NCBI GenBank assembly: GCA_964446735.1
Contig: CAYUQB010000002.1
Location: forward strand, 18,516 to 82,515
DNA from: an uncultured Candidatus Saccharibacteria bacterium
GTDB lineage: Bacteria > Patescibacteriota > Minisyncoccia > Phycocordibacterales > Phycocordibacteraceae
Reading direction: 5' to 3'
Length of the DNA stretch: 64,000 nt
Below are positions 37,301-60,520 of the stretch, one piece after another. Each line of letters opens with the position of its first letter. Positions within the stretch are counted from its first letter, which is position 1. A program made the translations under genes and the position numbers. The notes beneath the pieces are model-generated. The model was given only the letters and a program-made list of their open reading frames with translations, made no database searches and was not told the DNA's origin.

Positions 37301-40300
37301 CTCGGCTTTGATCCGCTTCGAGCGCTTACGACCGGAAGCGGGAACATAGCTATCGGTGAGAATGCTGGGTATGGAATTACCACCGGCACGTATAACACCA
37401 GCATCGGATACGGAACACAGAATCAAAACGGTCATTATAATGTGGCGCTCGGATACCAGACCGGCGGAGCTGGCAATAGAGCCGTGGCAGTCGGGTATAA
37501 CGCCTATTCGGATGGACAAGGTGGTATATCAATAGGTGCTGGTGCGAACGCGTTTGGAAGTTCAACTATTGCTGTCGGTTACGGGGCATACGCCAACAAC
37601 ACAGACGGTATTGCACTCGGTAGTGACGTGTTTTCATACGGAACCGCTGCGATCGTGATCGGTGCCTCTGCTTCAAGTGACTCGGGCGCCTCGAGCACTA
37701 TCGCTATCGGTTACAACGCATATGGGGGTGGCACAATTTCTAACACAGTCATTGGCGACACCGCTGGTTTCAACATAGCAGGAAGACGCAATCTTCTTAT
37801 CGGACCGACTGCGTTCGATCCCAATGGTGCTTCAGACGGTGGATTGAGTATTGGCAATCTCATTTTCGGTACACTTCCTGCCACGACCACGGTTGCCTCA
37901 CTACCGCTCACGGGCGCAATCGGTGTTGCTACCACTTCTCCGTATGCAACCCTTTCAGTTCACGCAAACAGCGGCTCAGTAAACACTACGCTCTTCGCGA
38001 TCGGTTCTTCGACCGCGAGTGCCACCTCGACTCTCTTCTCCATTAACAATATCGGCTCCACCACACTCTTCCGTCTCCCAAGTTCAGTCCTTACAACGAA
38101 TGAGAACGGCACAATCGTTGGCACCACATCTGTTGGTGTCACCTATGGCGGTACCGGCCTGGCGACGGCTCCTTCGTACGGTCAACTTCTCCTTGGAAAC
38201 GCATCAAGTGGGTATACACTCACGGCAACGTCCTCTCTCGGTATCGCTATCAGTGATACTACTGGTACGCTCAGTCTTGCTCGTGGCGGCACCGCCACCA
38301 CCACCTTCTACAACGGTGGCGTGGTCTTCTCTGACGGCACCAAACTCACCCAAGCAGCCGCCGCAAGCAACTTCTTCTGGGACAACACGAACAACCGTCT
38401 AGGGCTGGGTACCTCAAGTCCATGGGGCCAGCTCTCCATTAACCCCAATGGCATTAGTGGACCGGCGTTTGCCATCGGGAGTACCACGAGCACAAGTTTT
38501 GTGATTACTAACGCAGGATATGTGGGCATCGGGACGGCAACTCCACAAACCAGCCTCGATATTGATGGAGGTAATGTCCGTATAACGAATCTCTCGGGAA
38601 GTGTACAAAACCTGCTTTCACTCAATAACACGTCAGCGGGAACTGCGGCTGGAAACGCAATTGTATTTAACGGGCCCTCGAGTGTTCAGTATGGAAAAGT
38701 TGAGGTGGCCGCAGATAGTGCAACCAGTCAAACCTATCTTGCGCTCACGGTCCGTGGTGCGAGCGCTGCGTATGAAGCACTTCGTGCGGTGGGTTCGAGC
38801 GGGAGTATTGGTATCGGTACCACCACTCCGAAGTGGAAACTCACTGTTTCCACTTCGACTGCACCGCAACTCACCTTGACTGATGGCTCTGCCACTAATG
38901 CGCCCTTTAACTTCCGTGCCATTAACAACCTTTTGTACTTCTCGACCTCTTCGCCAACTACCTACGCTACCTCAACTCCGTTCTTAAGCTTCGACAGCTC
39001 TACTGCTTCGACCAGTATTCTGAGACTTGATGTGACGGGCACTGGAACCTCTACCTTTGCCAACGGTCTCAATATCGCCAATGGTTGCTATGCCGTGAAC
39101 GGTGTTTGCTTGGTCGGTACGTTCACCAACACGCTCGCTTCAGGCGGCACCGCCACCACCACCTTCTACAACGGTGGCGTGGTCTTCTCTGACGGCACCA
39201 AACTCACCCAAGCAGCCGCCGCAAGCAACTTCTTCTGGGACAACACGAACAACCGTCTCGGACTTGGAACATCGACACCATTTGGTCAGCTCTCCATCGA
39301 TTCGAACGGAATTACTGGTCCTGCGTTTGTTATTGGTTCATCAACCGCCACTCATCTGTTAGTTGAGAATAGTGGAAGAGTGGGTGTTGGTACTACCTCG
39401 CCTGCATCCGCGTATGGATTTAATGTCGGCACAAACTCGTATTTTGGAGCCACTACAACATTCGCTGGAGGTGCTGCTATCGGTGCATTTACCTCGGGGG
39501 GTAAGACAGGTACCTGGATTAATCTTCCAACGACTGGTCCGTCTGGTATTGGTACTGGCGGAGCAGGAAGTAACCCGTTTGTCGCATATGCTGCGTCAGC
39601 CACCGACTGGTTCAACGGTTCAATAATAGGTGACGCTGTGTATCGTAACGCAAACGGAACTCGTATTCTCATGGGCATTAGCAACAATAATGGTACTGCT
39701 CAACCACAGATTATTATTCAAGGTAACGCCTCATCTACCTGGCAAACCAGTTTCGGTACGACTTCACCATGGGGCATGGTCTCGATTGGTTCCCATGGGA
39801 TTGGAGACAAACCGGCGTTTGTCATTGGTTCGTCAACCGCGACTAATTTGATCGTCACCAATAGTGGACGAGTAGGTATTGGCACTAGCTCTCCTACCAG
39901 CATGCTCGCAGTTGGGGGAAACGTGACAATTAGTACTGCTGCAGCAAATAGCGGATTGCTGACCATCTACTCAGAGGACACAGGGTCCCTGTCCAATATG
40001 CAGGGTATCGTCGTTGCTGATCGTCAAAATGCCTACGGATCCTGGCAGACTCCTAGCGGGCTCGATGGAGTTCAGATCGGCGGCGGCGGCGAAGTAACCG
40101 CCTGGAATCAAGACTTCTTTATCAACTACTACTCCACCGGAGATGTGCGGCTTGCTCGCGGCGGCGGAGATGTGTTTGTAGGAAGCTCTCCACCGACAGC
40201 TCGGTTAAGCGTTAAGGGAAGCGCGGGTAGTACGACACCGGTGTTCCTCGTTTCTTCCTCCACGAACGCGAATCTATTTAATGTGCAATCGACTGGATTC

Positions 40301-43210
40301 GTGGGTGTCGGTTCTTCAACTCCGTGGGGTCAGTTCTCAGTGAATGCGTACGCAAGTACTGCACCAGCCTTCGTCGTCGGCAGCTCGAGTGCCACCAGTC
40401 TCGTGGTTTCTAACGGCGGCAATGTCGGTATCGGAACGAGTACGCCAGCACGCGCACTCCACGTCGCAAACTCAGGTGCCAGCTCACAATTCCTCCTCGA
40501 GGATACGGCGGCAGCTGCTGATCAACACATCGGTTCGATTGGGTTCTCACGCGGTGTCTTTAGCTTCAACACCCTTACCGATTCACTCGCAACGACCACT
40601 CGCCTCACCATCGACACCAGTGGCAATGTAGGTATCGCAACGTCTACACCGACCGCAAAGTTCGCGCTTACCGGAAGTGGCACCGGAACCGGTCGTCTCT
40701 TCGTACTTGCGGACTCGGCCAATACCGAACGACTCACCATTCTTGATAACGGAAAGGTAGGTATTGGTACAACCAGTCCAAACTGGCTCCTCTCGGTGTC
40801 AGGAACATCCGGCACTCGCTTCAAGACAACATCGGCTATCCAGAATGCGTTTGTCGTCGAGAATGCGGTTGGCACATCGACATTCCAAGTGGACACGCTT
40901 GATAACAGCGATTCCATCTTCTCGGTCGCGACCTCGTCGGGCAGTACGTACTTCTACGTTGGTGCGTCAGGACGCATTGGCGTAGGCACCACAACGCCGG
41001 GCGCTGCCCTCGATGTCTATAATGGTGCGCTGTGCGTTGATGACAGCTCGCCGACTTGTCAGGACGCTGCGCGTACCGCCGGTACAATCTATGCAGTTTC
41101 AACCTCCATTACCGGCATCGACCTTGCCGAGCGATACCCGACCAAGGATGCAACGCTTGCAGCAGCCGAGATCGTAGCGTTCGATCCTGCAAATCCGGTG
41201 TTTGTGAAGCGTGCTGCTTCAGGCAGCAGTTCGTTCCTCGGTGTCGTATCCACCCAGCCGGGTATTCTCCTCGGCGGCTATAACGACTCCTTATATAAGG
41301 ACGAGGTGAAAGTACCGGTGGCCCTTGCTGGTCGTGTCCCTGTTGCCGTTACGATGGAGGGAGGTGCTATCGACGTTGGTGACTACATCACCATCTCCAG
41401 TACGCCGGGTGTGGGAAAGAAGGCGACTGCGTCAGGCCAGACCATCGGCGTCGCGCTTGAGCCGGCAACCGCTGATGGCACTATCCAGGTATACATCAAA
41501 CCTGAGTATGTATTTGTGCCAAGCCAGCTCGCGATTGATGCTGATACAGGAAATGTCGGTATCGGAGTTGAGAACCCAACTCGTAAGCTTGAAGTGGCAG
41601 GAGATGCATTCTTCTCGGGCTTCCTTACTTCAGATCGATTTGTTGCATCCGGCTCGGGCACTAGCACGCTCCCACGAATTACCACCAATGCCATCGATCT
41701 TGCCGGCCAGTACCTCACTTCGGTTACCGGTACCGGACTCGAACTTTCGGGCGGCATACTCTCGATCGCAACGTCTTCGCTCACCAGTAATCTCTTCGCG
41801 CAGGGCGGCAATTCCTTTGGAACCACGACGGTGCTTGGCACTCGCGATACGCAGGATCTTGCCTTCATGACTGCAAGTTCGACTCGGCTCACTATTACCG
41901 CAGCCGGTAAGGTGGGTATTGGCACCGCGGCTCCCGCGCATGCGCTTGAAGTGGTTGGTGATGTTGCTGCCATTAGCTTCGTAAACACCTCAACTCGTAC
42001 TGCGAAGGAAGATATTACCTATCTCACGCAGGAAGATACGAAGGGTATTCTCGACACGCTTCGAGGCCTCAAGGTTGCCGAGTACCACTACAAGATTGAA
42101 AATCAATCAAATCCGCTCCGGCTTGGACTCATCGCAGAAGAGGCGCCTACTGAAGTACTCTCGCTTGATGGTAAGGGAGTTGATATCTATAAACTCGCAA
42201 CCTTCACCCTTGCCGGTGTCCAGTCGCTTGCAGGCAAAGTCGACACGCTCGAAGCAAAGGTTGCGGATATCGACGCACGACTCGCGCAGCTCGGGGGAGT
42301 AACACTTGCAACTACCAGTACCAGCACGAAAATCGCATCAAGCGGTGTCGGCCTGGGTGACCTTCCAGACGCACTACGCAGCTTCGGAGCATTCATTGGT
42401 AATGGCATCGCACAATTCCAAACACTCGTTGCACGACAATTTGTCGCAAGCAAGGATGCGGACGGCACGTCTTCTGCAGGTGAGGGAACCGTTGCATCAA
42501 CCACCAACTCGACCACCATTGAGAACAAACTGGTACGAGCATCAAGCAAGATCTTCATCACGTTCACGAGCCCAGTGGAGGGTGGGTGGTATCTGGCTGA
42601 TAAGAAGGAGGGAAGCTTCCGGGTGGTGCTGAAGAGCATGCCGGCTGAAGATGTCACGTTTGACTACTTCTTCATCCAGACCGAAGGGCAGCTCGCGGCG
42701 TCCGGCGCAGCGTCTGGCACCACAGACGGCAGCGATACGGAGCCGCCGGTGATTACGCTCAATGGTGAGACCTCTACGTACGTGCCAGTGGGGGAGACAT
42801 ACGTCGATCCTGGCGTGTCAGCGGTGGATGCAGTTGATGGCCCAGTTAGGTACAACCGACAGATAAATGGACAAACGATGGATATCAATGCTCCGCTTGA
42901 TACCTCGCACGAAGCGACCTATACGCTTACCTACGTTGCCTTCGATGCAAAGGGTAACTACGCAAGTGCCACTCGCACCGTCATTGTGGCAGCGCCCGGT
43001 GGTGGGGGAGCAGTACTTCCCGGTGCAACTCCCGAGCCGACACCTGCCCCAGAACCTGCACCGATACCTGAACCTACACCTGAACCTACACCTGAACCTG
43101 CACCAGAGCCAGCTCCGGAGCCAACACCAACTCCCGAGCCGACGCCTGCCCCAGAACCTGCACCGGAACCGGCTCCTGAACCAGCGCCATCCCCAGCTCT
43201 AGAAGGATGA
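28397..43210 (+). CDS. giant (4,937-aa) membrane-anchored fibre/adhesin-like protein with four parts: N-terminal HTH_17-like module and TM helix; Gly/Thr/Ser-rich modular repeat fibre; C-terminal peptidase-S74 intramolecular chaperone domain; DUF5011/Ig-like domain and (PEPT)n tail
   Basis: Single uninterrupted ORF of 14,814 nt. TM helix PGFALALTALVLMISVYAA (about aa 140-160). At least seven copies of the module LFAIGSSTASATSTLFSI-N-GSTTLFQLPSSVLTTNENGTIVGTTSVGVTYGGTGL..YGQLLVGN..GYTLTATSSLGL. NTAxG/AIG repeats (about 34.6-35.2 kb and 36.5-37.9 kb) resemble YadA-head/phage tail-fibre repeats. aa about 4532-4650 STRTAKEDITYL..LRGLKVAEYHYK..RLGLIAEEAP..LEAKVADIDARLAQL match the Peptidase_S74 (endosialidase chaperone) profile including the Ser-x4-Lys dyad. 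aa about 4780-4865 PVITLNGETSTYVPVGETYVDPGVSAVDAVDG...TYTLTYVAFDAKGNYASATRTVIV match DUF5011. C-terminus PEPTPAPEPAPIPEPTPEPTPEP... Confidence 0.85.
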   Translation: MSLPLDKNFIPNKVASELSGYNSDYIARLCREGKIEGTQIGRAWFVNRESLEKFIKQQDTRKKEIARELSAAREREYSARQNAATEVKEVKEVRISTETSIPKAKLIPSQIAPLQAVIHRPVHVRVKARSPRLSEVHPTLRPGFALALTALVLMISVYAAESGLVNNFASRVITSAMRTHADAPELPLRSAFAIRGIGEHLALGTSHLVTGAPKVYERGLMALVRTPADSAAAVATVTTTPEHGIGERVALTTYRGITRFFSNATDRLAVFFGFKSPNIAVLPFEAASALHPSTNLPAPTSSGEYRPTTQGITTVNYLTGVSSEYVDSYVSSYVTNALRGVREQIGRDVLDSNAVKRSRSSSSGSSSGGAATSVNGAVVATSLTLSGITGSTQCLQVDTSGVVSGTGSACGAGGSGITGLKGQYSSTQTGATQTFATSSDTNLTLTITSSGDTHTFTPGWTGVLSVARGGLGLSAVTANGLLIGNSAGTGYTSVATSSLGLSTSDISEGSNLYYTTARFAASLAGTTTDALAEGAINRYYTDARARAAYSTTATGLSYSSASGVLSLSSGYNIPLTASTTNWNSFYDTPSTRITAGTNLSWSGNTLNGPADSTIRGLFSGTYPVSYDSGTGAFSLAFGTTTSNTWAGTQTFTNTPVLGTLTGLVGSNNGSLYQIATSSNFVTSIAQSFGSAQTGAVTLATSSAATWNGVTFTNSITNSGGTFTFTPALSGTLAVAGGGTATTTFYNGGVVFSDGTKLTQAAAASNFFWDNTNNRLGLGTSSPWGQLSINPNGISGPAFAIGSSTDTLFSITSGGHITIGTSTPASTNGITLTTTAGTAAPILYMYRNDSSVTASESLGAIYFDSNDGPVSTNDAAVAILAQAAEVHGSTAKGGQLIFQTKSIGTGPNSSSDERFRITASNTSGFSTSSPYATLSIHTNKDVTNRTLFAIGSSTASATSTLFSITNTGSTTLFQLPSSVLTTNENGTIVGTTSVGITYGGTGITSYTSGDLLYANSSGILAKLGIGSAGQVLKVTGGLPVWGADLTTGGGGGAGAWATTSDSLAVYPTDTSDVIIVGNSATSTLTSIFEVHGKSYFSNFLGIGTTNPSTQLSVQGDALFSGNLSLANLTATGTISTTNLTVGTLNGPLHANNGVVSATTSIGVLYGGTGLTTAPSYGQLLLGNSSSGYTLTATSSLGLQSVLQGTQGQVAYFSDTNTAVGTSSIFIGTNTNVGIGSSSPSARLSILGADAASSGATAPHALYVRGGTGGSTSGFGGPITLVGGAAGVATSNGGTVTIVSGSSFAGLPGAEIELTGSANSAGGGLTFTGGNGSILGGGFTFTSGDGQSGGSYYFTSGDGSLNGGDFNFTSGAATSSGSGGQFTFTGGVASSTTANATGGGFTVTGGAASSTISTVHGGSIQLTGGSGGTGALTVGSGGNIVLNGGAAGVAGGSVGNVLLAGLRGKVGIGSSSPYALLSLHASSTATTPMLFAISSSTSTFATSSLFSINNVGSTTLFQLPSSVLTTNQNGTIVGTTSIGVTYGGTGLTSGPSYGQLLVGNASAGYSLTATSSLGLVTSVNASGGTTGLSFSGGPITSSGTLTLSGTLGLANGGTATTTFYSGGVVFSDGARLTQASSTSDFFWDSTNKRLGLGTSTPWGQLSINPNGISGPAFAIGSTTNTSFVVTNGGYVGIGSAVPTNALTVVASSTSVTSTFPFDDTQLEIAATSSSSGSLNIGLNSRQSRYYIVGNSGNLTSNDMYIGVDGSSDGFGKVHIITGFAGGSVPRITATRDGQVGIGTTSPYAKFAVHAANAETNRVLFAIGSSTASATTTLFSVNNIGSTTLFQLPSSVLTTNENGTIVGTTSVGVTYGGTGLSTAPAYGQLLVGNSSGGYTLTATSSLGLGTGNGTVTSVDASGGTTGLSFSGGPITSSGTLTLSGTLGLANGGTATTTFYSGGVVFSDGARLTQASSTGDFFWDSTNKRLGLGTSTPFAKLSVNQNTSGPSTIPAFVVGASDSTKFIVTASGNVGVGTSSAAYTLDVGGFANVDKFSGYKQDTFTILTASSTSLSTLVGINAGASLTQGARYATVLGYGALQNTTSGTYNTAVGYQTLNANSTGAQNTALGAFALTNNFTGADNVALGYGASYFNAYATRTVAIGSEAGEGVGNYANQGGVLVGYKSGFNLTDGSNYNTLLGYQSGFGITTGANNIIIGADSDGSGGNSNLTTGSGNIQIGYNISLPSATASNQLNIGNLIYGTGVSGTAFVPSTGRIGIASTSPFAKLSVHANNGDTNPALFAIGSSTASATTTHFLVTRTGEVGIGTTSPSAQLALSGVSGTTAAAPDFLGLFGGTGGAPVTGDAGAGSSGRIGAGAGGATANGNGGAGGSLTFAAGTGGASSQTTGISGAGGSLSLSAGNGGDGSELVSTPGNGGAITITAGSAGGNGAASGGSVTINPGAKGTTGSDGNVLIATLRGKTGIGTTSPYAKLSIHSNNGDTNRTLFAIGSSTASATTTLFSITNTGDATLLGTSTAAGGSFTRLTVGSDYFTDLTGTGLALSGSALTLDTGNANSWTGTQTFNTVTINTGYVFTVGTLNGPLHANNGVVAATTSIGVTYGGTGLTTAPSYGQILVGNASSGYTLTATSSLGLPTGSGAAGRVAFWDGTGSLSSNANFTFSSTNSQFSIPNNGWYAIGGNLLGYASSTNQATIFGLGAGGNNATTTGAGSNLTAVGFNALNAMTTGANNTAVGSLALRSATTGGANTAVGASALSALTTGGFNTAVGYLAGTSVTTGAGNSILGHDAAASLTVGWNNTLIGQYAGYTITTGSGNTVLGGVEDTGISNLTTGDNNIAIGLNILFADGTADNQLNIGNFIFGTIPATTTNSSLQLPKTGKLGIATSSPYAKLSIHANNGSTDTTLFAIGSSTASATSTLFSVSNSGQLSSNLSGTTTLLRVAGREFIKADTASLNLALGFDPLRALTTGSGNIAIGENAGYGITTGTYNTSIGYGTQNQNGHYNVALGYQTGGAGNRAVAVGYNAYSDGQGGISIGAGANAFGSSTIAVGYGAYANNTDGIALGSDVFSYGTAAIVIGASASSDSGASSTIAIGYNAYGGGTISNTVIGDTAGFNIAGRRNLLIGPTAFDPNGASDGGLSIGNLIFGTLPATTTVASLPLTGAIGVATTSPYATLSVHANSGSVNTTLFAIGSSTASATSTLFSINNIGSTTLFRLPSSVLTTNENGTIVGTTSVGVTYGGTGLATAPSYGQLLLGNASSGYTLTATSSLGIAISDTTGTLSLARGGTATTTFYNGGVVFSDGTKLTQAAAASNFFWDNTNNRLGLGTSSPWGQLSINPNGISGPAFAIGSTTSTSFVITNAGYVGIGTATPQTSLDIDGGNVRITNLSGSVQNLLSLNNTSAGTAAGNAIVFNGPSSVQYGKVEVAADSATSQTYLALTVRGASAAYEALRAVGSSGSIGIGTTTPKWKLTVSTSTAPQLTLTDGSATNAPFNFRAINNLLYFSTSSPTTYATSTPFLSFDSSTASTSILRLDVTGTGTSTFANGLNIANGCYAVNGVCLVGTFTNTLASGGTATTTFYNGGVVFSDGTKLTQAAAASNFFWDNTNNRLGLGTSTPFGQLSIDSNGITGPAFVIGSSTATHLLVENSGRVGVGTTSPASAYGFNVGTNSYFGATTTFAGGAAIGAFTSGGKTGTWINLPTTGPSGIGTGGAGSNPFVAYAASATDWFNGSIIGDAVYRNANGTRILMGISNNNGTAQPQIIIQGNASSTWQTSFGTTSPWGMVSIGSHGIGDKPAFVIGSSTATNLIVTNSGRVGIGTSSPTSMLAVGGNVTISTAAANSGLLTIYSEDTGSLSNMQGIVVADRQNAYGSWQTPSGLDGVQIGGGGEVTAWNQDFFINYYSTGDVRLARGGGDVFVGSSPPTARLSVKGSAGSTTPVFLVSSSTNANLFNVQSTGFVGVGSSTPWGQFSVNAYASTAPAFVVGSSSATSLVVSNGGNVGIGTSTPARALHVANSGASSQFLLEDTAAAADQHIGSIGFSRGVFSFNTLTDSLATTTRLTIDTSGNVGIATSTPTAKFALTGSGTGTGRLFVLADSANTERLTILDNGKVGIGTTSPNWLLSVSGTSGTRFKTTSAIQNAFVVENAVGTSTFQVDTLDNSDSIFSVATSSGSTYFYVGASGRIGVGTTTPGAALDVYNGALCVDDSSPTCQDAARTAGTIYAVSTSITGIDLAERYPTKDATLAAAEIVAFDPANPVFVKRAASGSSSFLGVVSTQPGILLGGYNDSLYKDEVKVPVALAGRVPVAVTMEGGAIDVGDYITISSTPGVGKKATASGQTIGVALEPATADGTIQVYIKPEYVFVPSQLAIDADTGNVGIGVENPTRKLEVAGDAFFSGFLTSDRFVASGSGTSTLPRITTNAIDLAGQYLTSVTGTGLELSGGILSIATSSLTSNLFAQGGNSFGTTTVLGTRDTQDLAFMTASSTRLTITAAGKVGIGTAAPAHALEVVGDVAAISFVNTSTRTAKEDITYLTQEDTKGILDTLRGLKVAEYHYKIENQSNPLRLGLIAEEAPTEVLSLDGKGVDIYKLATFTLAGVQSLAGKVDTLEAKVADIDARLAQLGGVTLATTSTSTKIASSGVGLGDLPDALRSFGAFIGNGIAQFQTLVARQFVASKDADGTSSAGEGTVASTTNSTTIENKLVRASSKIFITFTSPVEGGWYLADKKEGSFRVVLKSMPAEDVTFDYFFIQTEGQLAASGAASGTTDGSDTEPPVITLNGETSTYVPVGETYVDPGVSAVDAVDGPVRYNRQINGQTMDINAPLDTSHEATYTLTYVAFDAKGNYASATRTVIVAAPGGGGAVLPGATPEPTPAPEPAPIPEPTPEPTPEPAPEPAPEPTPTPEPTPAPEPAPEPAPEPAPSPALEG
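30605..30720 (+). repeat. 116-bp near-perfect direct repeat family, copy 1 of 3 (inside giant ORF)
   Basis: GGCGGCACCGCCACCACCACCTTCTACAACGGTGGCGTGGTCTTCTCTGACGGCACCAAACTCACCCAAGCAGCCGCCGCAAGCAACTTCTTCTGGGACAACAC(C/G)AACAACCGTCT. One mismatch versus copies at 38285..38400 and 39143..39258. Confidence 0.85.
33137..33288 (+). repeat. 152-bp perfect direct repeat, copy 1 (inside giant ORF)
   Basis: Identical to 34139..34290 by direct comparison; encodes GGTTGLSFSGGPITSSGTLTLSGTLGLANGGTATTTFYSGGVVFSDGARL. Confidence 0.9.
34139..34290 (+). repeat. 152-bp perfect direct repeat, copy 2 (inside giant ORF)
   Basis: Identical to 33137..33288; spacing 1,002 bp (334 codons), one protein repeat module. 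Confidence 0.9.
38285..38400 (+). repeat. 116-bp direct repeat family, copy 2 of 3
   Basis: Identical to 39143..39258 over this span; one mismatch versus 30605..30720. Confidence 0.85.
39143..39258 (+). repeat. 116-bp direct repeat family, copy 3 of 3
   Basis: See copies 1 and 2. Confidence 0.85.
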
Positions 43211-48028: not shown

Positions 48029-48457
48029 ATGAGAAACATCAATAATCCTCGACACAAATTAACAGCATCACAGGTTCAAGAGGCACAACGCCTCTATGAG
48101 GATTATGGATGGAGGGTGAATTGGATCTCGGTTTACTTCCATATTCACCGAAGCTCAGTGATCTTTCATGCGAGATTCAACGGCTGGGTAAGGAGGATCA
48201 AAACAGCCAAGAGGATACCTGACGAAATTGCTGAGATTTATCGGGATAGGAAGAAATCAAAGTACGAGCAAAAAATGAAGGGGTCATACGAGTACATTAA
48301 GCAGTCAGCAGAACAACAAAGAGTAAAAAGTTGCGGACATATTCGATGGGTTAAGCGGTGTAGTTTGTGCGGTGAGATTCTGAGTTCTGATGCGATTTGC
48401 GAGAGGCATGAAGCGTTTGCACATAGTAATGCAACAGCTGGGTCCCGAAAGGATTAA
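48029..48457 (+). CDS. hypothetical protein with C-terminal Cys4 cluster (zinc-ribbon-like)
   Basis: CGHIRWVKRCSLCGEILSSDAICERHEAFAH; N-terminal HTH-like LTASQVQEAQRLYEDYGW. Confidence 0.3.
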   Translation: MRNINNPRHKLTASQVQEAQRLYEDYGWRVNWISVYFHIHRSSVIFHARFNGWVRRIKTAKRIPDEIAEIYRDRKKSKYEQKMKGSYEYIKQSAEQQRVKSCGHIRWVKRCSLCGEILSSDAICERHEAFAHSNATAGSRKD

Positions 48458-48475
48458 TAACATTTCAATAAAGCC

Positions 48476-52347: not shown

Positions 52348-52375
52348 AGTAATGCACTCAATTTTGCATTTTTTG
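52348..52375 (+). repeat. phage intergenic motif AGTAATGCA-N8-TGCATTTTTT, copy 1 (before portal gene)
   Basis: AGTAATGCACTCAATTTTGCATTTTTTG; small stem AATGCA/TGCATT plus T-tract. Recurs at 55596 and 60476. Confidence 0.6.
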
Positions 52376-52395
52376 AAGGTGATACTGAAATCAAC

Positions 52396-54420
52396 ATGGC
52401 ATTAGCCCACTATAAGAAAAGAGAGGAATTAGCAAAACAGGCTCTCAAAGAGATCGATTATTCGTATCGCTACAAGAAAGCTCGCATGACTTCGTGGAAT
52501 AAGAACGAGGACATGATGAATCCGGACCGAATAAATCCATCAGTAGTTTCTCCGTATGGTGGTAGTACTTATCAGCAACAGCAAGGAGATACTCGAGCGC
52601 AAGTGCCTCTCTACAAGATGCACGGATTTGTTCACACCATCCTTTCAAAGATTGATAGTCCATTAACTTTTAAATATGTGAAGGGTGAATCGGCTGATTT
52701 GAAGAAATCTAAGCTGATGAACGCAATAAAAGATAAGGATTCAAAAGTCGGCAGGTGGAATTTTAAGGATCTGATGGGAAAGCGTGATGCGGCGATTTAT
52801 GGACGCACGATGTACCTTTACATGTCTAGAAATGATAAGGGTGTTTATCGAAGTATCTTGAATCTCATAGATCCGAAAGACTTTTTGATTGATCCTGATG
52901 TTGGTGGTCTATGTACTGAGGAAGAAGATGGGAGTGGAATTGAAAAAGCTCTTTATCTTGGCTGGTGGAATACAAAGATTTCTCGTGCCCAACTCCAAAA
53001 AGGTATTAAGGACGGTATTTATTACAAGAAAGTTGTTGAAGGGTTGCTCGATGGTGGTACTAACACCACTACGAAAACTCAACAGGACATTGATAAAGAT
53101 AATCGAAAGATTAGTGGCGCACCAAGAGAGCGTTTTAAGAATGAAAATCAATTTATTTTTTATACTTGGATCACTACAGACGAGAATGATGATCGCTACT
53201 ATCTAGTTCTCACTCCATCAGGTGATTGTATTCGTTGTGAGCCGTGGACTGATGTAAGAAAAAGTGGAAAATATCCTATTTGGACATGGGCGGCATTTCC
53301 TGATCCTCGTGAGTTTTGGACACCATCATATTGTGATTTTGCTCGTGGCATTTTCATGGCTCAAGAAAAGAGTATCAACCAATCACTTGATAACTCTGAG
53401 CAGATAAATCGTCCTCAAACTGCTGTGAATGTTGATTATGTGAGGAACTTAGCACAAGTTCGTTATCGCAAGGACGGCTATATTGAGATCGAAGGAAATA
53501 TTGATGTAAATAAAGTTCTACAGACTAGGCAAACACCACCAATTGAGGGTCCATTTAAGGTTTACGACAAGCTTGAGCAGATCGTTGAATCAGAAAGTGG
53601 CGTTACTGCCGATGTGAAGGGAACAAGTGATGAAGATACGCTTGGCATCTATGAGGGCAACCTGATGCAAGCCGGTGATCGCTTTGGTCTTTTGAATAAA
53701 AGTTACGCAGAAGGCTATTACCGATTTGCTGTATTGCACAAAGAGGGTGTCATGCAGGATCTCAAAAAGAAAATGGCCGTTCAGATTCTCGGTCCTATGG
53801 GTCTTGAAATTGAAATGGTCAGCTCGAGAGATTTGAAACCGTTTAGAGATGACTATGACATTCTCGTTGAATCAAGTATTGCTGAGGCTCAGAGTAATTT
53901 GGCAGATAGTAAAAATAAACTCACATTTCTTGGAGCGTATAAAGGCGATCAAACTATAAATCAGAAAGTTTTGTTTGAAACTCAGGCAACTATTGCTGGT
54001 GTTGATGATGACACTATCAAGCGATTACTCGATACGAGTGATTACGATGCTATCGAAGTTGTGGCTCAGGCAGATGAGGCATTTCAGATCATTATTGGTG
54101 GCGATAAAGCTCCTCTCTACAAAGATGCAAATACTGCTTTCCTTCAACGCATCCATGATCTCTCGGATAAATACGATCACGAACTTAGTACCGAACAACA
54201 TAACGCTGTATTTGCTTACATCGACGAGATAACGCCGATTGTTGAGAAAAATGCAGCTCGTTCGGTGATGGCACAGGCAGCAAAAGAAGGCTTGATCAGC
54301 GGAAGGGGTCGGATGGTCGATGGAGCCGATCTCGAAAATCCTGATCTTGCCGCAACTGGAGCTGTCCGTCTCGGAGATCCGGGAGCGGAAGCGGCAGAAA
54401 CCGCAGCATTATCAAAATAA
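52396..54420 (+). CDS. putative portal protein
   Basis: 674-aa ORF directly downstream of terL; size and position typical of portal. No motif confirmation. Confidence 0.45.
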   Translation: MALAHYKKREELAKQALKEIDYSYRYKKARMTSWNKNEDMMNPDRINPSVVSPYGGSTYQQQQGDTRAQVPLYKMHGFVHTILSKIDSPLTFKYVKGESADLKKSKLMNAIKDKDSKVGRWNFKDLMGKRDAAIYGRTMYLYMSRNDKGVYRSILNLIDPKDFLIDPDVGGLCTEEEDGSGIEKALYLGWWNTKISRAQLQKGIKDGIYYKKVVEGLLDGGTNTTTKTQQDIDKDNRKISGAPRERFKNENQFIFYTWITTDENDDRYYLVLTPSGDCIRCEPWTDVRKSGKYPIWTWAAFPDPREFWTPSYCDFARGIFMAQEKSINQSLDNSEQINRPQTAVNVDYVRNLAQVRYRKDGYIEIEGNIDVNKVLQTRQTPPIEGPFKVYDKLEQIVESESGVTADVKGTSDEDTLGIYEGNLMQAGDRFGLLNKSYAEGYYRFAVLHKEGVMQDLKKKMAVQILGPMGLEIEMVSSRDLKPFRDDYDILVESSIAEAQSNLADSKNKLTFLGAYKGDQTINQKVLFETQATIAGVDDDTIKRLLDTSDYDAIEVVAQADEAFQIIIGGDKAPLYKDANTAFLQRIHDLSDKYDHELSTEQHNAVFAYIDEITPIVEKNAARSVMAQAAKEGLISGRGRMVDGADLENPDLAATGAVRLGDPGAEAAETAALSK

Positions 54421-54436
54421 TTAACTAAATTAACTT

Positions 54437-54772
54437 ATGTCTGAATCAAACAATGTGAAATTCGTAGAATCTGATGGTAAATGGCTCTGGAAGCTCTATG
54501 GGGTTGACGGATCTGTTATTCATCGCAGTAATCTGTTCGATACTGAGCAGGAAGCAAGGGCTGATCATGAGGCTTATGGCAATGGGGTAGGCTCATCTAC
54601 TGCCGAAGGGGCAAACACGGCTCCAGAAGCTCCCCAGCAAGCCACAGAGGGGGTCCCAACTGCTCCTCAGGATGATCTTGGGGCTGGATCTGCTGGTCCT
54701 GCTGAAGAAAATGCCGGTCTTGACAAAACTGTTGGAGAATCGGCTGATACCTTGAATAATCCTGATGCTTAA
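54437..54772 (+). CDS. DUF1508 (YegP-like) domain protein
   Basis: VKFVESDGKWLWKLYGVDGSVIHRSNLFDTEQEARADHEAY fits the YegP/DUF1508 repeat (F.i..d..G.wRwrL...NG.ii..Se.Y.s...a). Confidence 0.45.
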   Translation: MSESNNVKFVESDGKWLWKLYGVDGSVIHRSNLFDTEQEARADHEAYGNGVGSSTAEGANTAPEAPQQATEGVPTAPQDDLGAGSAGPAEENAGLDKTVGESADTLNNPDA

Positions 54773-55139
54773 ATTCTCTTACAAAATCAAAAAGCGATCG
54801 AGAGATAAGGGTGATCATAGAATCACTAAGCATGGTCAAGTTGCAGAGTTCTCTTTGCGAGAAATCAATCGCAACATTGAACAAATGCGAAAGCAGGTTA
54901 AGGAAATGGAGGCAAATGCTCGTTTGCAAGAAAGTCTTGCTGAGAATATTCGCCGATCTAATCCTGATCTGGTCTCTTATATGAAAAAGCTGTCTCCGAA
55001 AAAGCGACATGCTTTGACGATGCTTGCGATTCAAGAGAATAAGGCAAAACAGTTCAAGGATCAGGAAAAGGAATCAAAGCGGATTCTCAAAACTATTATC
55101 AGAGAGGACCAAGAAGTCCGTAACCAATTAAAGCTATGA
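54765..55139 (+). CDS. hypothetical coiled-coil protein
   Basis: 124 aa, K/E/Q-rich heptad-like. Confidence 0.3.
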   Translation: MLKFSYKIKKRSRDKGDHRITKHGQVAEFSLREINRNIEQMRKQVKEMEANARLQESLAENIRRSNPDLVSYMKKLSPKKRHALTMLAIQENKAKQFKDQEKESKRILKTIIREDQEVRNQLKL

Positions 55140-55546
55140 ACGAAAGCGAACAAGAGCAATCACAGCAAGAAGCGGAGCCGGTGCTAACTGGTCCTCATAA
55201 TGCTGAACAGGAGGCGGATCAAGAAAAGCAAGAAGCTGATGAAGCTGAAGTTGAAGAATTAAATCATGCCATCGATGTAACCAATGATTTGGTGTCGTGG
55301 TCTAAAACTCCGGCAGGAAAAGACACTATTGAGCGTCTTCAAAATGAATCTCGAAAGGCAATGAATGAGTTGTTTGCCGTGCTACATGAAAGTCCTGAGC
55401 TTGGCAAACTTATATCTGTAATTGCTCGATTTGAAGCATCAGTACAAATGCTTAGGCGTTTTATTGGTGCCGATGAAGATCTTGATGTGTTACTTAATGA
55501 GTTGGCACGAAAAAGACCGAGTGCATCAGCTGAAGCATCAAAGTAA
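55136..55546 (+). CDS. hypothetical acidic protein
   Basis: 136 aa, E/Q/D-rich N-terminus; start overlaps upstream stop. Confidence 0.3.
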   Translation: MNESEQEQSQQEAEPVLTGPHNAEQEADQEKQEADEAEVEELNHAIDVTNDLVSWSKTPAGKDTIERLQNESRKAMNELFAVLHESPELGKLISVIARFEASVQMLRRFIGADEDLDVLLNELARKRPSASAEASK

Positions 55547-55564
55547 AGAAATTGTAAAGAAAAA

Positions 55565-55591
55565 TCACCGCTTAGTCGGTGGTTTTTCTTT
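55565..55591 (+). terminator. rho-independent terminator
   Basis: CACCG-CTTAGT-CGGTG then GTTTTTCTTTT. Confidence 0.45.
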
Positions 55592-55595
55592 TGAT

Positions 55596-55623
55596 AAGTA
55601 ATGCAACATATTGTGCATTTTTT
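55596..55623 (+). repeat. phage intergenic motif, copy 2 (before scaffold-like gene)
   Basis: AGTAATGCAACATATTGTGCATTTTTTG. Confidence 0.6.
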
Positions 55624-55712
55624 GTAGATCACACTTATCAGCATAGAGGGGCCAACCTCTTTTATTAAAAAGGTTAATGCGCTAGTGCTTAGCGTTTCCA
55701 AATGAAGCACCG

Positions 55713-56609
55713 ATGGGGCGAAACCATCGAAATATAAAACGTATGCCAAAAGCACAAAGCAAGGATGCAGCGCCTGCCGACGATAAGTCGAAAGCTGCAG
55801 GGGAATCTCAGCCAGCCGATAAGGGTGGCAAAAAAGATTCAGACAACCCTTCAAATGGTCAATCGATTGCACAGGTTGCAGGGGGTGAAAACTCCAAGTC
55901 TGACGATTCAAAAGACGGCAAGCCCAAAGAGGGTGATGAGAAGGACAGTCTCATAGTCGATCTTAAGAAAGAGAATCGTGAGATGAAAAAAATGATCAGA
56001 GACGAGGTCATTCCTACCATTCGCCAGCTCCAAGAGCAGGTCAAGAAAGGGGGTACATCGGCCGGGGACGCATTAGACGAACTCGACGAACTCGCCAAAG
56101 AGTGGGAGCTTGAGCCGAAATTTGTCCAGAAGCTCGCAAGCATTCTTCTCAACAAGTCCAAGAAGCAATTTGAGGACGAGTACCTTTCAGATATCAAGGA
56201 CATCAAGTCTAAGACGGAAGCTCAATCTAAAGAGATCTCAAATGCTCAGATCACAGCGGCAATCTCGAAAGAGTTTGATCGTGTAGTGGCTGATAATCCG
56301 GATCTTGCGAAAGTTGCCAAGAAAGAAGCTGTTAAGAAGTACATCATGTCGAGCGAGGAAAATCTTTCTCGCACCATGGAGGAAATTCTTGAAGAACTTT
56401 ACGGCGATACATCAAAAGATTCTAGCGGCATTGAGGGCTACAGCTCTCAGGGTGGCAATCATCCTAAGGAACCCGATTACAAGGCTCCAAGTGATGAGGA
56501 TCATAAGCGCATTGCAGAATCTCGAGAAAAGGGCGGACAGGAATTTGAGAAATATCAGGACGGCCTGATTGATCGCCTGACCCATCGTTCACGTCATCGC
56601 TCGAAGTAA
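55713..56609 (+). CDS. putative scaffolding protein
   Basis: 298 aa, extremely K/E/D-rich with predicted coiled coil (KKENREMKKMIRDEVIPTIRQLQEQVKK). Directly precedes the capsid gene. Start may be 55743. Confidence 0.4.
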   Translation: MGRNHRNIKRMPKAQSKDAAPADDKSKAAGESQPADKGGKKDSDNPSNGQSIAQVAGGENSKSDDSKDGKPKEGDEKDSLIVDLKKENREMKKMIRDEVIPTIRQLQEQVKKGGTSAGDALDELDELAKEWELEPKFVQKLASILLNKSKKQFEDEYLSDIKDIKSKTEAQSKEISNAQITAAISKEFDRVVADNPDLAKVAKKEAVKKYIMSSEENLSRTMEEILEELYGDTSKDSSGIEGYSSQGGNHPKEPDYKAPSDEDHKRIAESREKGGQEFEKYQDGLIDRLTHRSRHRSK

Positions 56610-56654
56610 TTGATCTCTGAGAGGGTAAATTTATTCACTTAACTTTATTCTCTC

Positions 56655-57857
56655 ATGTTAGCAGTATTCAAAGAGCAGTTCGACAATGCCTATCAGGCAG
56701 TGTTCGACAAGGTGCTTGTGGCAATGGAGATTGCCAATACACGCCTCGAGAAAAAGCTCGAGTATGGAGCATCTGTAAAGCGTGTGAAATATTCTCTCGC
56801 ACCGATTCGTGTGCGTAACATCACTATTGGTGTGAACCGAACCATTGACCAGCTCAATGACTCGGGTGAGACCCTTCTTGTAAACAAGAACAAGGGTGCC
56901 GACTTCCGCGTCTCGAAGAAAGAGATGATTCAGGCAGGCCCACTGAATCCAGCGGAAACTATTGGTGCTGAGGTGGCAAAGAAGCTATCTCGTTATATCG
57001 ATGCTGACGTATTTGCTCAGGTGAAAAATGCGCTCCAGACATTCGATACCGGAGATCTCACTACGATGAGTTCTAATGGAACCGCTATTACACTTTCGAC
57101 TACAAATGTCCCTCAGCTTTTGTCTCAGGGTCGTGCGAAGCTCCGAAAGGCAAATCAAGATCTCACCAGTCTTGCCTTGGTGTTGGATAGCTATGGTGGC
57201 TCGGTTATCGAGCAGTATGTCATGTCGAAGAATATCGACTTGGCGGCAGCTGCCTTCAAGAACGGTTATGCCGGTCCTGTGGGTGGTGCGGAGCTTTATC
57301 TCTCCGAGAACCTTCTCGCTGAAGCTGTGATTACGATGGCGTCTAACCCTTCAAACGGTCAGATCTTCTCGATCAATGGCTTTATCTACACCTTCGTAAC
57401 TTCGATTGGATCAACGCCGGGCAATGTGCTTATCGAGGCTGGTGTGGATGCAACCCGAGACAACCTGATTGATGCGATTCATCAGACTACCGGTACTGCC
57501 GGATCTAAGTACATCGCATGGACTGATACGGACCCTGGCTACGATCAGTCTAACTGGGTTGATCTTCAGCTTGCAGCTGTCGATAACGATGGTGCGGATA
57601 CTATCACCATTACTGGTACTGGCTCTGGTCGCCTTGTATTTGGCGGAAACGCTACTTACACGGTTACCAAGAATCTTGTTCACGCTTACTACGGTAAGAA
57701 GGGAGCAATCGATGTGGTCATTCAGGACCTTGCCGAGATGGAAATGGTTGATGACCCTTACCAGCGAGCAAAAATCATTCGAGCTGACGCTATCTACGGC
57801 ATCTTCACCTTTGCCGATGGAAAGCCACAGTTCCTTGATGTGCTTCTCCAGTCTTAA
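56655..57857 (+). CDS. putative major capsid protein
   Basis: 400 aa. Position after scaffold; followed by a strong hairpin. No sequence motif confirmation. Confidence 0.4.
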   Translation: MLAVFKEQFDNAYQAVFDKVLVAMEIANTRLEKKLEYGASVKRVKYSLAPIRVRNITIGVNRTIDQLNDSGETLLVNKNKGADFRVSKKEMIQAGPLNPAETIGAEVAKKLSRYIDADVFAQVKNALQTFDTGDLTTMSSNGTAITLSTTNVPQLLSQGRAKLRKANQDLTSLALVLDSYGGSVIEQYVMSKNIDLAAAAFKNGYAGPVGGAELYLSENLLAEAVITMASNPSNGQIFSINGFIYTFVTSIGSTPGNVLIEAGVDATRDNLIDAIHQTTGTAGSKYIAWTDTDPGYDQSNWVDLQLAAVDNDGADTITITGTGSGRLVFGGNATYTVTKNLVHAYYGKKGAIDVVIQDLAEMEMVDDPYQRAKIIRADAIYGIFTFADGKPQFLDVLLQS

Positions 57858-57889
57858 AGACTGCACTGGCCTCAGCGTTGCTGGGGCTT

Positions 57890-57925
57890 AGTGCTAGAGG
57901 CAGAGCTAATTCTGCTTCTAGCACT
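57890..57925 (+). terminator. strong hairpin downstream of capsid gene
   Basis: AGTGCTAGAGGCAG-AGCTAATT-CTGCTTCTAGCACT, 14-bp stem with one mismatch. Confidence 0.45.
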
Positions 57926-57945
57926 GAGACAAACAGAAAATCATC

Positions 57946-58575
57946 ATGGCTACACCACTTACAGGACAACAAATCATAGATCGATTCGAGTTTTATACCG
58001 ATGACACCACGGATCTTTCTAGTGATGAAGAATTGATACTCGCAAATGATAAGGTCCGTTTGATTTTCATGGAGCAGCCATGGGAGTTTCTACGCAGGAA
58101 AAAGAATGGAGTAGTTGAAAGCGATGGAAAAATAACTTTGCCGACTGATTTTGATGAATTGATGGAGAACTATAGCGATGATCCAACTATTGGAGAGCCG
58201 ATCACGAAAGTTATTTATGTCGGTGGTCAAAAGTCTCCATATTTGGTGGTCCCGATGGGTCAGAGAAATGCAAATAATTTCAGCAATGTGTGCTGGATTG
58301 ATCCTGCTGATGGAAAAATAAACTTTCTGCAAAATCCGGGTACTGGTGCTGCTTATGAATTCGACTACAAGACCAGCCCCGATGACATTGCCGTTGGTAC
58401 ATCTCCAAAACTTCCTGCTGAGTACCATCCAATGATCGTGTTTGCGATGCTCATTGATGAGGAGATCATCAAAAAGTCTGAAAAGGCTCGTAGCAATATG
58501 CAAGAAAACTTTGCTCAATTTCAGCGTTATATGAAAAATCTTAAATTGCGTGATGCACGATTTAAACTCGCATAA
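57946..58575 (+). CDS. hypothetical phage structural protein
   Basis: 209-aa ORF in structural module. Confidence 0.3.
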   Translation: MATPLTGQQIIDRFEFYTDDTTDLSSDEELILANDKVRLIFMEQPWEFLRRKKNGVVESDGKITLPTDFDELMENYSDDPTIGEPITKVIYVGGQKSPYLVVPMGQRNANNFSNVCWIDPADGKINFLQNPGTGAAYEFDYKTSPDDIAVGTSPKLPAEYHPMIVFAMLIDEEIIKKSEKARSNMQENFAQFQRYMKNLKLRDARFKLA

Positions 58576-58578
58576 TTT

Positions 58579-60480
58579 ATGGCAGATCATGAGATTAAAA
58601 AATATGGATCGGGAGTACATAATCGAGAGGATAATGAGGATACACCGAAAGATAGTGCAAAAGATTCACTCAACTGGGTAACGATTGATGGAAAGATTGA
58701 ACTTGCCCGAGGAAAAGTAACCGTGGGATCTGAAGGAGCGGCCGGTGCCTGTCCGGCTATTCATGTTGGATACAAAGCAAACGGTACAGGAATTCTTTGG
58801 CGAAAAGTTGCAACAGCTATCCAGTATTTTAATGGCCTGACGTGGGTAAATGTTGTTACCGGTCTCAATCCAAATGATATTTATGTGTTTACAAACTACA
58901 GCTCTCTTACCGGAGCTTGGACTTTTGCCGGTGGTCCGGGTGGCTTATTTAAGTTCGCTAACGCCAATCCAAATGATTTTATTCAGCTCTATACAACAAC
59001 AGATTTCTTCTGTGGTTTTCCTTTGATCGATAAAGCAAGAATGTATTTATGGGGGATTGCAAAAGATCCTACAAGTCTTTATCGAAGCTTTGTTGATGTT
59101 CAAAGAGATGGTGTCAGCTTTACTCAAATCTCAAATGAAAGTTTGGCTAGCGGAAATGGATCGCAAACATTATTTTCAGGTGTTTTGGCTTTTAAATCTG
59201 GCCAACCAAAAAGAAATTGTGGTTTGGTAACAGTCAAATGCACAGATGGCGGTGGTGAAATATTTACTGATGATAAAAATGGAAATCTTAAAAGCACTGC
59301 CGGTGGAGTTGGAACGATAAATTATATTACTGGTGCGTGGAGCGTTACTTTTGTTACGGTTCCATCAAACTCTGCTGGAAATATCAAAGCGGATTATGTT
59401 TGGGAAAATAGCACAAGCAAAGGAGTAGCAGATTTTACTTATAGTTCATCTCGTCTCGCAGGTGAAGGAGATGTGATTAGACAAGATGAAGGTGGCGATG
59501 CTATTCAACAGCTCGTAATTGGTATCGATGGCAATTACTATTCGCTTAAAAAACAAAGTGCATATCAACATAAATACACTGATGACGATAAAACTTTCAA
59601 TAACCAAGTTGTCAGAAGAAATATCGGTGTTCTTACTCGAAGAAGTGCCGTAACTACCGGCCGAGGAGTGGTCTTTATTAATACTGCCAATCCTGATCGA
59701 CCTCAACTCACAGTTCTTGAGAAAAATCCTCTCGGTGATGACATTCTTGCAACTGAGCTTATTCCACATTTTGCATGGGAGAAATTTGATTACTCGGATA
59801 CGTTCATGGAAACCTACGGGCAATTTATTGTCATGACGTGTCGTTCTCAAGGAAGCATTGTAAATGATCGGATGCTTGTCATCGATATTGTAAAAAATAC
59901 TGTCGATCTCACTAATTACGGAATGAAATCATTAGTTAAAGATTCGGGGATTCTTTATGGTGGCAGTCCGCATACTCAGACTGTCTACAAAATATTAAAT
60001 GGATTTGATGATGATGGTTATGTGGTTCAAAACAGTTGGGATAGTAAATACGAAACTTACGGTGTTCGTCGGCTCAAGAAATATCGTCGCCTGAGATATC
60101 GAGGCGAAATTGATCCAGCTCAATATGTGGAAATCTACGCAGATTTTGATGGATCTGGATATTCCTTAGTAGGCACAATTCGAGGCGATGCTACTTATGT
60201 GAATCGGTCTAGTCCTTCAAGCGTTGGAACAACAATGATAGGTGAAGCGGCTGTTGGAGGCGATGGATCAGCTCAAGTGTATCCCTACGAGCTGCAGATT
60301 AAGGCGATGAAAATTCCTAAATTCCGTAGACGAAGTATCCGATTTATCGCAAAAGGAATCGGATATGTGAGTGTCATGGAATCGGTCGATTGGGATATTT
60401 TGACCTTTGAGGACAAATTACCAAAGGTCTACCGCCAAAAACAGCATGTAAGTCTTGATGGCAAAAGCACAAACCAGTAA
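58579..60480 (+). CDS. hypothetical phage structural protein (633 aa)
   Basis: ORF, context. Confidence 0.3.
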   Translation: MADHEIKKYGSGVHNREDNEDTPKDSAKDSLNWVTIDGKIELARGKVTVGSEGAAGACPAIHVGYKANGTGILWRKVATAIQYFNGLTWVNVVTGLNPNDIYVFTNYSSLTGAWTFAGGPGGLFKFANANPNDFIQLYTTTDFFCGFPLIDKARMYLWGIAKDPTSLYRSFVDVQRDGVSFTQISNESLASGNGSQTLFSGVLAFKSGQPKRNCGLVTVKCTDGGGEIFTDDKNGNLKSTAGGVGTINYITGAWSVTFVTVPSNSAGNIKADYVWENSTSKGVADFTYSSSRLAGEGDVIRQDEGGDAIQQLVIGIDGNYYSLKKQSAYQHKYTDDDKTFNNQVVRRNIGVLTRRSAVTTGRGVVFINTANPDRPQLTVLEKNPLGDDILATELIPHFAWEKFDYSDTFMETYGQFIVMTCRSQGSIVNDRMLVIDIVKNTVDLTNYGMKSLVKDSGILYGGSPHTQTVYKILNGFDDDGYVVQNSWDSKYETYGVRRLKKYRRLRYRGEIDPAQYVEIYADFDGSGYSLVGTIRGDATYVNRSSPSSVGTTMIGEAAVGGDGSAQVYPYELQIKAMKIPKFRRRSIRFIAKGIGYVSVMESVDWDILTFEDKLPKVYRQKQHVSLDGKSTNQ

Positions 60481-60501
60481 TGCACTAAATTTTGCACTTT
60501 T
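60476..60501 (+). repeat. phage intergenic motif, copy 3 (before tail-fibre gene)
   Basis: AGTAATGCACTAAATTTTGCACTTTT. Confidence 0.55.
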
Positions 60502-60520
60502 AGGCACTCATACTTAAACT

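Follow-up and report, generated by a model that had tools for sequence, protein, structure and literature searches.

Why should one short intergenic sequence recur in front of several structural genes of a phage lodged in the chromosome of an uncultured bacterium of the candidate phyla radiation (CPR)? The question is raised by a 64,000-nucleotide (nt) stretch of contig CAYUQB010000002.1 (GenBank assembly GCA_964446735.1, positions 18,516 to 82,515), referred to here as the window, in which a motif built on the sequence AGTAATGCA precedes genes of a prophage structural module. Having compared the motif across related phages, and having modelled and compared the proteins that might read it, we propose, with a probability of roughly 60%, that it forms the upstream part of a set of phage late promoters that would be used by the host RNA polymerase and activated by g142, a small phage protein.

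A search of the window found the pattern AGTAATGCA-N8-TGCAYTTTT exactly three times, always on the + strand, just as the original prediction from the bare sequence had said. The copies span 52348-52373, 55597-55622 and 60476-60501, so that the coordinates given there were right to within one base, the second copy beginning at 55597 and not at 55596. No further copy was found in the window when two mismatches were allowed, the motif was not present in the 46 kb of host DNA, and 100 dinucleotide-preserving shuffles yielded 0 matches, with 0 expected by chance. The proposed gene assignment holds for the portal gene (ATG at 52396) and for the scaffold/capsid unit (true scaffold start at ATG 55743), while the third copy, earlier assigned to a tail-fibre gene, precedes a tail-region gene for a 257-aa protein (ATG at 60521).

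When the three copies were aligned, conservation was seen to run past the T-run into an in-register hexamer, nAYACT, at motif positions 34-39. In the window this hexamer reads GATACT, CACACT and CATACT and begins 33 nt after the start of the conserved upstream block (9-13 bp, here AGTAATGCA followed by C or A); the combined pattern GTAATRCA-N25-ANNNT has 4 matches in the window against 0.17 expected. We then compared 26 related genome loci, about 90 viral loci and 28 metagenome loci. In every close relative (capsid at least 85% identical) the same construction stands at the same three places, and in 7 of these close-relative genomes a fourth site precedes a small holin-like gene and an amidase gene (lysis), about 6.8 kb after copy 3 and so past the end of the window. 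For the window phage this fourth site is inferred from the relatives, because DNA identical to the window element was found only as one 7.7-kb contig. Across 47 syntenic sites from 14 related genomes the hexamer has the consensus cATACT, with A at the second and T at the sixth position in 47/47, A at the fourth in 40/47 and C at the fifth in 36/47; the first base is T at 15 sites and C, G or A at the other 32. The T-run occupies motif positions 22-27, and the distance from block start to hexamer is exact to the nucleotide in about 45 of the 47 sites. Moreover, the gap from hexamer to ATG is 6 nt at the tail and lysis sites and mostly 9 nt at the portal. Each genome carries 3-5 sites, all on the coding strand and before late units only. 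This hexamer pattern is, on sequence grounds, the signature of a -10 element. At the -35 position (motif positions 11-16) the 47 sites have no TTGACA-like consensus, and a consensus promoter scan called none of the three sites in the window. Among the options first raised for the motif, that of a late promoter is therefore borne out by the fixed-register hexamer with its invariant A2 and T6 and an ATG 6-9 nt further on, by the position of the sites before four late units (portal, scaffold/capsid, tail and lysis), and by a separate terminator upstream of copy 2.

The three putative promoters in the window, all on the + strand, can be laid out accordingly, with host RNA polymerase expected to begin transcription about 7 nt past each hexamer. 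The first (portal; 52348-52386) comprises the block AGTAATGCAC at 52348-52357, a second TGCA with the T-run at 52365-52374, and the -10-like GATACT at 52381-52386; its predicted start at about 52393 would leave a leader of only about 3 nt before ATG 52396, and syntenic sites were found in every close relative. The second (scaffold/capsid unit; 55597-55635) consists of the block AGTAATGCAA, a T-run and the -10-like CACACT at 55630-55635, and its predicted start, near 55642, falls at a conserved CATAGAGGGG. The third (tail-region genes g257 and g693; 60476-60514) has the block AGTAATGCAC, which here overlaps the TAA stop of the upstream 633-aa gene, and the -10-like CATACT at 60509-60514, with ATG 60521 exactly 6 nt past the hexamer; the mRNA is predicted to be leaderless, starting at about 60521. 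In every class of block described below the 633-aa gene ends inside the block, its stop codon being either TAA within GTAAT or TGA within ATGAAT or ATGATT (60476-60480 and its counterparts in relatives), and the block at this place is therefore under both coding and promoter constraints.

While the hexamer is shared, the upstream block is not. It is identical at all sites of one genome, and the genome-specific 9-mer occurs only at that genome's 3-5 sites per locus of about 21 kb when both strands are searched (with one stray exception). Between genomes, however, about 10 classes can be told apart, in phages with 85-97% capsid identity: GTAATGCAC in the window, and GTAATACACC, GTAATTCCTACAG, GAATCCGTGGTC, GAATACCTACCG, GATTGCACACAC, TAATTGACACA, GTAATTCTCAATG, CAATGCACGC, GTAATGCAAC and AATACCCACA elsewhere. 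The original prediction had also argued that the conserved AGTA bases outside the stem exceed what a generic terminator needs, and GTAAT indeed turns out to be the part of the block most widely conserved across classes. The block has the look of a site at which a phage DNA-binding protein would dock, with a specificity that is not the same in close relatives.

Which protein might this be? When 16 shared phage proteins were compared in a first data set, g142 (48029-48457, + strand), a 142-aa protein with a helix-turn-helix (HTH) and a Cys/His ribbon, showed the highest correlation with block distance (Spearman 0.53). A plain Mantel test did not discriminate in this set (capsid 0.46 vs g142 0.53), whereas partial tests gave r = 0.43 for g142 given capsid (p = 0.0013) and 0.16 for capsid given g142. 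With 28 non-redundant loci the Mantel correlation of g142 with the block was r = 0.56 (p = 0.0003), and the partial r of g142 stayed at 0.55, 0.51 and 0.57 when the large terminase subunit TerL, the portal and the adjacent gene g133, respectively, were controlled for (all p = 0.0003); the controls themselves correlated with the block at 0.16 (TerL), 0.34 (portal) and -0.04 (g133). In addition, the predicted recognition helix of g142 differs between block classes and matches within them, and the core of the block goes together with the residue before the invariant FH of this helix, which is I or L for (G/A)CAC, R for CC(T/C)AC (in three block classes), H for CACA and V for CCGTGG. An AlphaFold 2 model of g142 shows a three-helix N-terminal domain, with a predicted local distance difference test score (pLDDT) of 84-89, followed by two more helices and a Cys/His β-hairpin. 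Its fold matches are weak (E >= 0.14), all of them to helix-turn-helix DNA-binding domains and none to a sigma factor, and searches against Pfam and PDB sequences gave no significant match. Taken together, these data make g142 a candidate for the specificity factor that recognises the upstream block.

One further site lies within the g142 gene itself. At 48425-48463 (+ strand) there is a degenerate copy, GTAATGCAAC, with an in-register TAACAT at 48458-48463, the hexamer standing 12 nt before the ATG of g133 (48476). It has neither the second TGCA nor the T-run; a like arrangement is seen in the relative L037 and was not found in the other relatives, so that we regard it as a weak candidate for a fourth in-window promoter site. 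The segment that holds it (48400-48457) encodes a C-terminal extension of g142 that most homologues do not have, and this extension, together with the parallel in L037, hints either at recombination here or at autoregulated expression of the genes from g133 to the terminase.

In the mechanism that we favour, host RNA polymerase carrying the primary sigma factor would read the -10 hexamer, while g142, bound at the block at about -44 to -32, would recruit or stabilise the polymerase and so replace the -35 contact, in a class-II-like or MotA-like manner. Since g142 would be made from the upstream replication/early operon, the late genes would come on after it has accumulated. The second TGCA, and with it the apparent hairpin, would then be a feature of this specificity class and not a transcript structure; it may be a second, weak half-site one helical turn downstream, and the signals for it as a dyad and as a direct repeat are both modest and class-dependent. 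Activator-dependent promoters typically have strict spacing and a first hexamer base that departs from the consensus, and it is because both are found here that we favour an activator over a repressor.

Several points weigh against this proposal. Every functional step in it is inferred. Host promoters, too, have no obvious -35, and promoters with a -10 alone may be active unaided, in which case the block could be an operator and not an activator site. Co-variation cannot tell an activator from a repressor, relatedness can inflate Mantel statistics despite the controls, and the co-variation test excluded the window prophage's right-end proteins, which lie beyond the window, together with the small left-end open reading frames (ORFs). 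The g142 model is of moderate confidence overall (mean pLDDT 68), and its fold matches lie at E >= 0.14. Finally, the preference for ACT and the upstream GTAAT resemble elements of the promoters read by the sigma factor gp47 of phage 7-11, a likeness that leaves some room for an undetected sigma.

Two of the alternatives would place the function of the motif in RNA. The original prediction had described it as a short hairpin with a T-tract. An inverted repeat (ATGCA/TGCAT) and a T-run are there, TTTT(TT) following the second TGCA in 3/3 copies, but a stable hairpin is not: RNA folds of copies 1-3 gave -4.8, -7.3 and -5.1 kcal/mol (z = -0.01, -0.76 and -0.78 against shuffles), and in copy 3 the outer pair is broken and a different fold is preferred. 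Nor is the pairing conserved: certain close relatives already lack the second TGCA half (TTTTGCTTTC), and the inverted repeat is missing from entire classes (dyad score 0.71 in the window vs 0.12-0.46 in most classes), while the T-run is also present in classes without the hairpin. An intrinsic terminator or attenuator would account for the fact that each of the three window copies has an inverted repeat of 5-6 bp and, after it, TTTT(TT), and to this extent the motif resembles one. It differs, however, from the true terminator beside copy 2 at 55556-55592 (+ strand), which closes the unit from portal to g136, has a 15-bp stem and a fold energy of -17.9 kcal/mol (z = -5.76, equalled by 0/200 shuffles), lies about 30 nt upstream of copy 2, is matched by a hairpin at the same position in relatives, and was called by a terminator scan that called none of the three copies. 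With a terminator and then at once the motif, the order is what one would expect where one transcription unit ends and another has its promoter. Moreover, the upstream gene has its stop codon in the sequence of copy 3, whose T-run is just 20 nt away from the following ATG. Fold energies and the non-conserved pairing speak strongly against the motif as an intrinsic terminator, relatives that lose the pairing keep the site, and the terminator/antiterminator option was accordingly dropped; we consider termination or attenuation by a short hairpin and T-tract barely credible. Only a little less remote is an RNA-level signal for RNase processing or stabilisation that would partition a long structural transcript. 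Such a signal would suit a strand-specific motif at gene boundaries, with copies 1 and 3, which have no terminator upstream, probably crossed by read-through. A site for a host RNase, however, should be conserved in phages of related hosts, and instead there are about 10 classes that track an HTH protein; the weak hairpin is not conserved, and the invariant A2/T6 hexamer at its fixed distance from the ATG would be left unexplained. A search of Rfam found no family for the motif or for the leader downstream of copy 2, only sub-threshold terminator-like matches.

The remaining alternatives accept a promoter and differ over what acts on it. The block could be an operator at which g142, or another phage protein, acts as a repressor over the -35 region of constitutive promoters that need only a -10, keeping the late genes silent, for example in a lysogen. 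The block does overlap the -35 region, host promoters in the window likewise have only a -10-like hexamer and no -35, the co-variation of g142 fits a repressor equally well, and class A has partial dyad symmetry. Several other classes have no dyad (0.12, 0.33), however, and operators usually tolerate shifts, whereas the spacing here is invariant in almost all sites; the first hexamer base departs from the host-like TAnnnT in 32/47, as in weak activator-dependent promoters, and g142 is co-directional within the replication/packaging operon and not part of a separate immunity module. We therefore judge the operator reading unlikely. Alternatively, the promoters might be read by an alternative sigma factor, either phage-encoded, as in phiEco32 and 7-11, or of the host, with GTAAT(G) as a -35-like and ACT as a -10-like element. 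This would fit a structural module that is remotely phiEco32/SU10-like, the similarity of 7-11 and phiEco32 promoter words to GTAATGCA...cATACT here, and a hexamer that prefers C at the fifth position (36/47), unlike TATAAT. The gap from GTAATG to ACT is 29 nt, however, against 16 in 7-11, and no known sigma bridges it with regions 4 and 2. Searches for Sigma70_r2 and Sigma70_r4 gave no signal (E <= 10) in the proteins of the window element and of relatives that span about 32 kb, the right end of the window prophage lying beyond the window; divergent phage sigmas can escape profile searches. In addition, g142 has no region-2-like part and no sigma fold matches, and a host sigma is at odds with specificity that shifts between phages of near-identical hosts and with the absence of the motif from the host DNA. 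A sigma factor other than the primary one seems to us likewise unlikely, slightly more so than the operator. Two more promoter types were set aside: a sigma-54 reading (TGGCAC-N5-TTGCA), which fails on the missing GG and on a spacing that exceeds the norm by one base, and which would not account for the conserved hexamer, and a Bacteroidetes-type promoter (TTTG / TAnnTTTG), for which no match was seen by eye.

The short gaps between hexamer and ATG have a further consequence, as they imply leaderless or nearly leaderless phage mRNAs. No Shine-Dalgarno (SD) sequences were found for phage or host genes in the window, SD-like 4-mers being present in 2/28 host ORFs vs 11% at random positions. By comparison, a TAnnnT ending 5-10 nt before the ATG precedes 8/28 host ORFs, vs 5.5% of random positions and 1-3 ORFs at control distances, and no -35 consensus is evident at the host genes (window 1-45650). 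This suggests that leaderless mRNAs are widespread in this CPR host, and the phage sites appear to follow the same -10-proximal, leaderless mode of initiation. We found no literature on leaderless initiation in Patescibacteria.

The message from the second promoter would begin with a structured leader. The approximately 100 nt at 55642-55742 (+ strand) are highly conserved and form three hairpins; in an alignment of 14 relatives 88% of cells were paired, vs 30-58% in slid controls, and 7 pairs showed compensatory changes. The listed scaffold ORF start at 55713 is probably not the real one, the true start being ATG 55743. As the first hairpin lies at the predicted 5' end, the arrangement suggests a role in the stability or the translation of the scaffold/capsid message.

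What kind of element carries these sites? Near 46.1 kb of the window the guanine-plus-cytosine (GC) content falls from about 53% to about 42%. Left of this break lie cellular genes (GatB, GAPDH and a 4937-aa ORF), and to its right every gene is on the + strand. The order there runs from an AAA_24 protein, a RepO-like protein, g142, g133, a ParB-methyltransferase, TerS and TerL, through the portal, three small ORFs, a scaffold-like protein and the capsid protein, to an SU10_adaptor protein, the 633-aa, 257-aa and 693-aa proteins and a LysM protein. In profile searches the portal matched Pfam SU10_portal (7e-13) and the adaptor SU10_adaptor (8e-9), the remote phiEco32/SU10 likeness referred to above. 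Capsid homologues occur deep within 180-700 kb contigs of metagenome-assembled genomes from Paceibacterota/Parcubacteria and other Patescibacteria, and also on many 34-40 kb contigs; in a different genome, L135, the element again lies 3' of Obg-GatB-GAPDH. From the GC shift, the gene content, the capsid homologues inside Patescibacteria contigs and the shared locus in L135 we conclude that the element is a prophage in a Paceibacteria-type CPR chromosome of 53% GC. Among 50,697 deposited phage genomes none showed DNA similarity to the prophage, and tblastn searches with capsid and g142 found no relative there.

The prophage thus lies downstream of GAPDH in two different host genomes (window 46150 onward; L135:1-9000), despite the fact that no integrase was recognised anywhere across the element of about 32 kb, relatives being used to cover its full length. 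The gap that separates the host GAPDH terminator from the first phage gene (45681-46120) holds small ORFs with no Pfam match, one of them coding for an 82-aa protein that is AbrB/SpoVT-like by eye, and these could be lysogeny regulators. The right end of a relative (L110:12478-20380) encodes a ResIII helicase, two DNA methyltransferases, and NOV_C and DUF3644 proteins, which may be defence or anti-defence cargo. In more distant relatives (L042, L043, L097, L088, L099 and L102; capsid 43-50% identical) promoters stand at the same positions, in front of the portal and of the g257 homologue, but their style varies according to the presumed host: in some, TATAAT lies 7-9 nt ahead of the ATG and is accompanied by a repeated upstream block particular to the genome (ATATGTTGATAAC in L042, GTGTAAAA in L043), and in others TGnTATAAT precedes a leader of 30-40 nt that has a ribosome-binding site of the GGGGG type. 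On the host side, the giant 4937-aa ORF (28397-43210) has negative GC skew and internal repeats, such as the identical 19-mer TAGTGGACCAGCGTTTGCA at 30775 and 33394.

The locus offers a testable model of a CPR-phage promoter, made up of block, T-rich spacer and -10 hexamer; it points to leaderless initiation in phage and host alike, and it brings out a candidate regulator whose protein-DNA specificity code can be read. Our literature search found nothing on transcription control by phages of CPR/Patescibacteria beyond metagenomic surveys. A more far-reaching idea, which we put forward tentatively and think somewhat unlikely to hold as a whole, is that g142 founds an undescribed family of small HTH/zinc-ribbon factors that replace the -35 contact of the CPR polymerase and have been re-programmed in specificity at least about 10 times, a re-programming that may come down largely to a single recognition-helix residue or a small number of them (I/L, R, H or V ahead of FH). 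If true, this would amount to a natural set of orthogonal activator-promoter pairs yielding leaderless mRNAs, and to the first transcription-control system described for Patescibacteria phages. If confirmed, the matched pairs of promoter and regulator could be put to use as expression parts in organisms with almost no genetic tools, and the system would provide a clean natural case in which a regulator and a number of scattered target sites have evolved rapidly together.

How do these sites compare with known phage promoters? Phage 7-11 has late promoters of the form GTAAtg-(16)-aCTA that are read by the phage sigma SaPh711_gp47, the middle/late promoters of phiEco32 have the form tAATGTAtA, 6-8 nt before the start, and are read by the sigma gp36, and promoter positions have been found to be conserved between related phages while the sequences change (PMC8948821). 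The sites described here are alike in being short, phage-specific elements before late structural units, in podoviruses with a portal and adaptor of the SU10/phiEco32 type, in sharing the words GTAAT(G) and ACT, and in repeating the pattern of kept positions and changing sequences. They differ in that the two words stand 29 nt apart, no sigma gene was found and the -10 hexamer is host-like. Furthermore, 7-11 and phiEco32 are lytic enterobacterial phages of 77-90 kb, whereas the element here is a CPR prophage of about 32 kb whose specificity varies among very close relatives.

Other parallels lie with promoters at which a phage protein assists the host polymerase. T4 middle promoters combine a MotA box near -30 with a sigma-70 -10 and no -35, and are used after sigma appropriation by MotA and AsiA. 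The sites in the CPR prophage likewise have a -10 together with a phage-specific upstream box that would take the place of the -35, its reader protein being so far a candidate only, and in class A the proximal TTTTGC(A/T)TT (about -31 to -23) is similar to the MotA box TTTGCTTTA. In contrast to T4, however, the block stands at a greater distance upstream (-44 to -32), other classes have no TTTGC-like element, g142 does not resemble MotA, and a search for a counterpart of AsiA can point to no such protein. In P2 and P4, four late promoters are served by the zinc-finger activators Ogr and Delta, and in Mu the late promoters depend on Mor and C, whose sites are centred near -43.5. No Pfam, PHROG-function, PDB-sequence or fold match links g142 to Mor/C, Ogr/Delta or MotA, homology to Ogr, Mor or C being undetectable, and the P2 site, at -55, is placed differently; the mRNAs here are, in addition, predicted to be leaderless. 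What is shared with these systems is a small phage DNA-binding protein (zinc-binding in P2, a candidate here), a poor or absent -35, and one conserved upstream element at a fixed distance before each of about four late operons. In light of these comparisons, the element is most likely a variant of the activator-dependent phage late promoters, in a group of phages and hosts from which transcription signals had not been described before.

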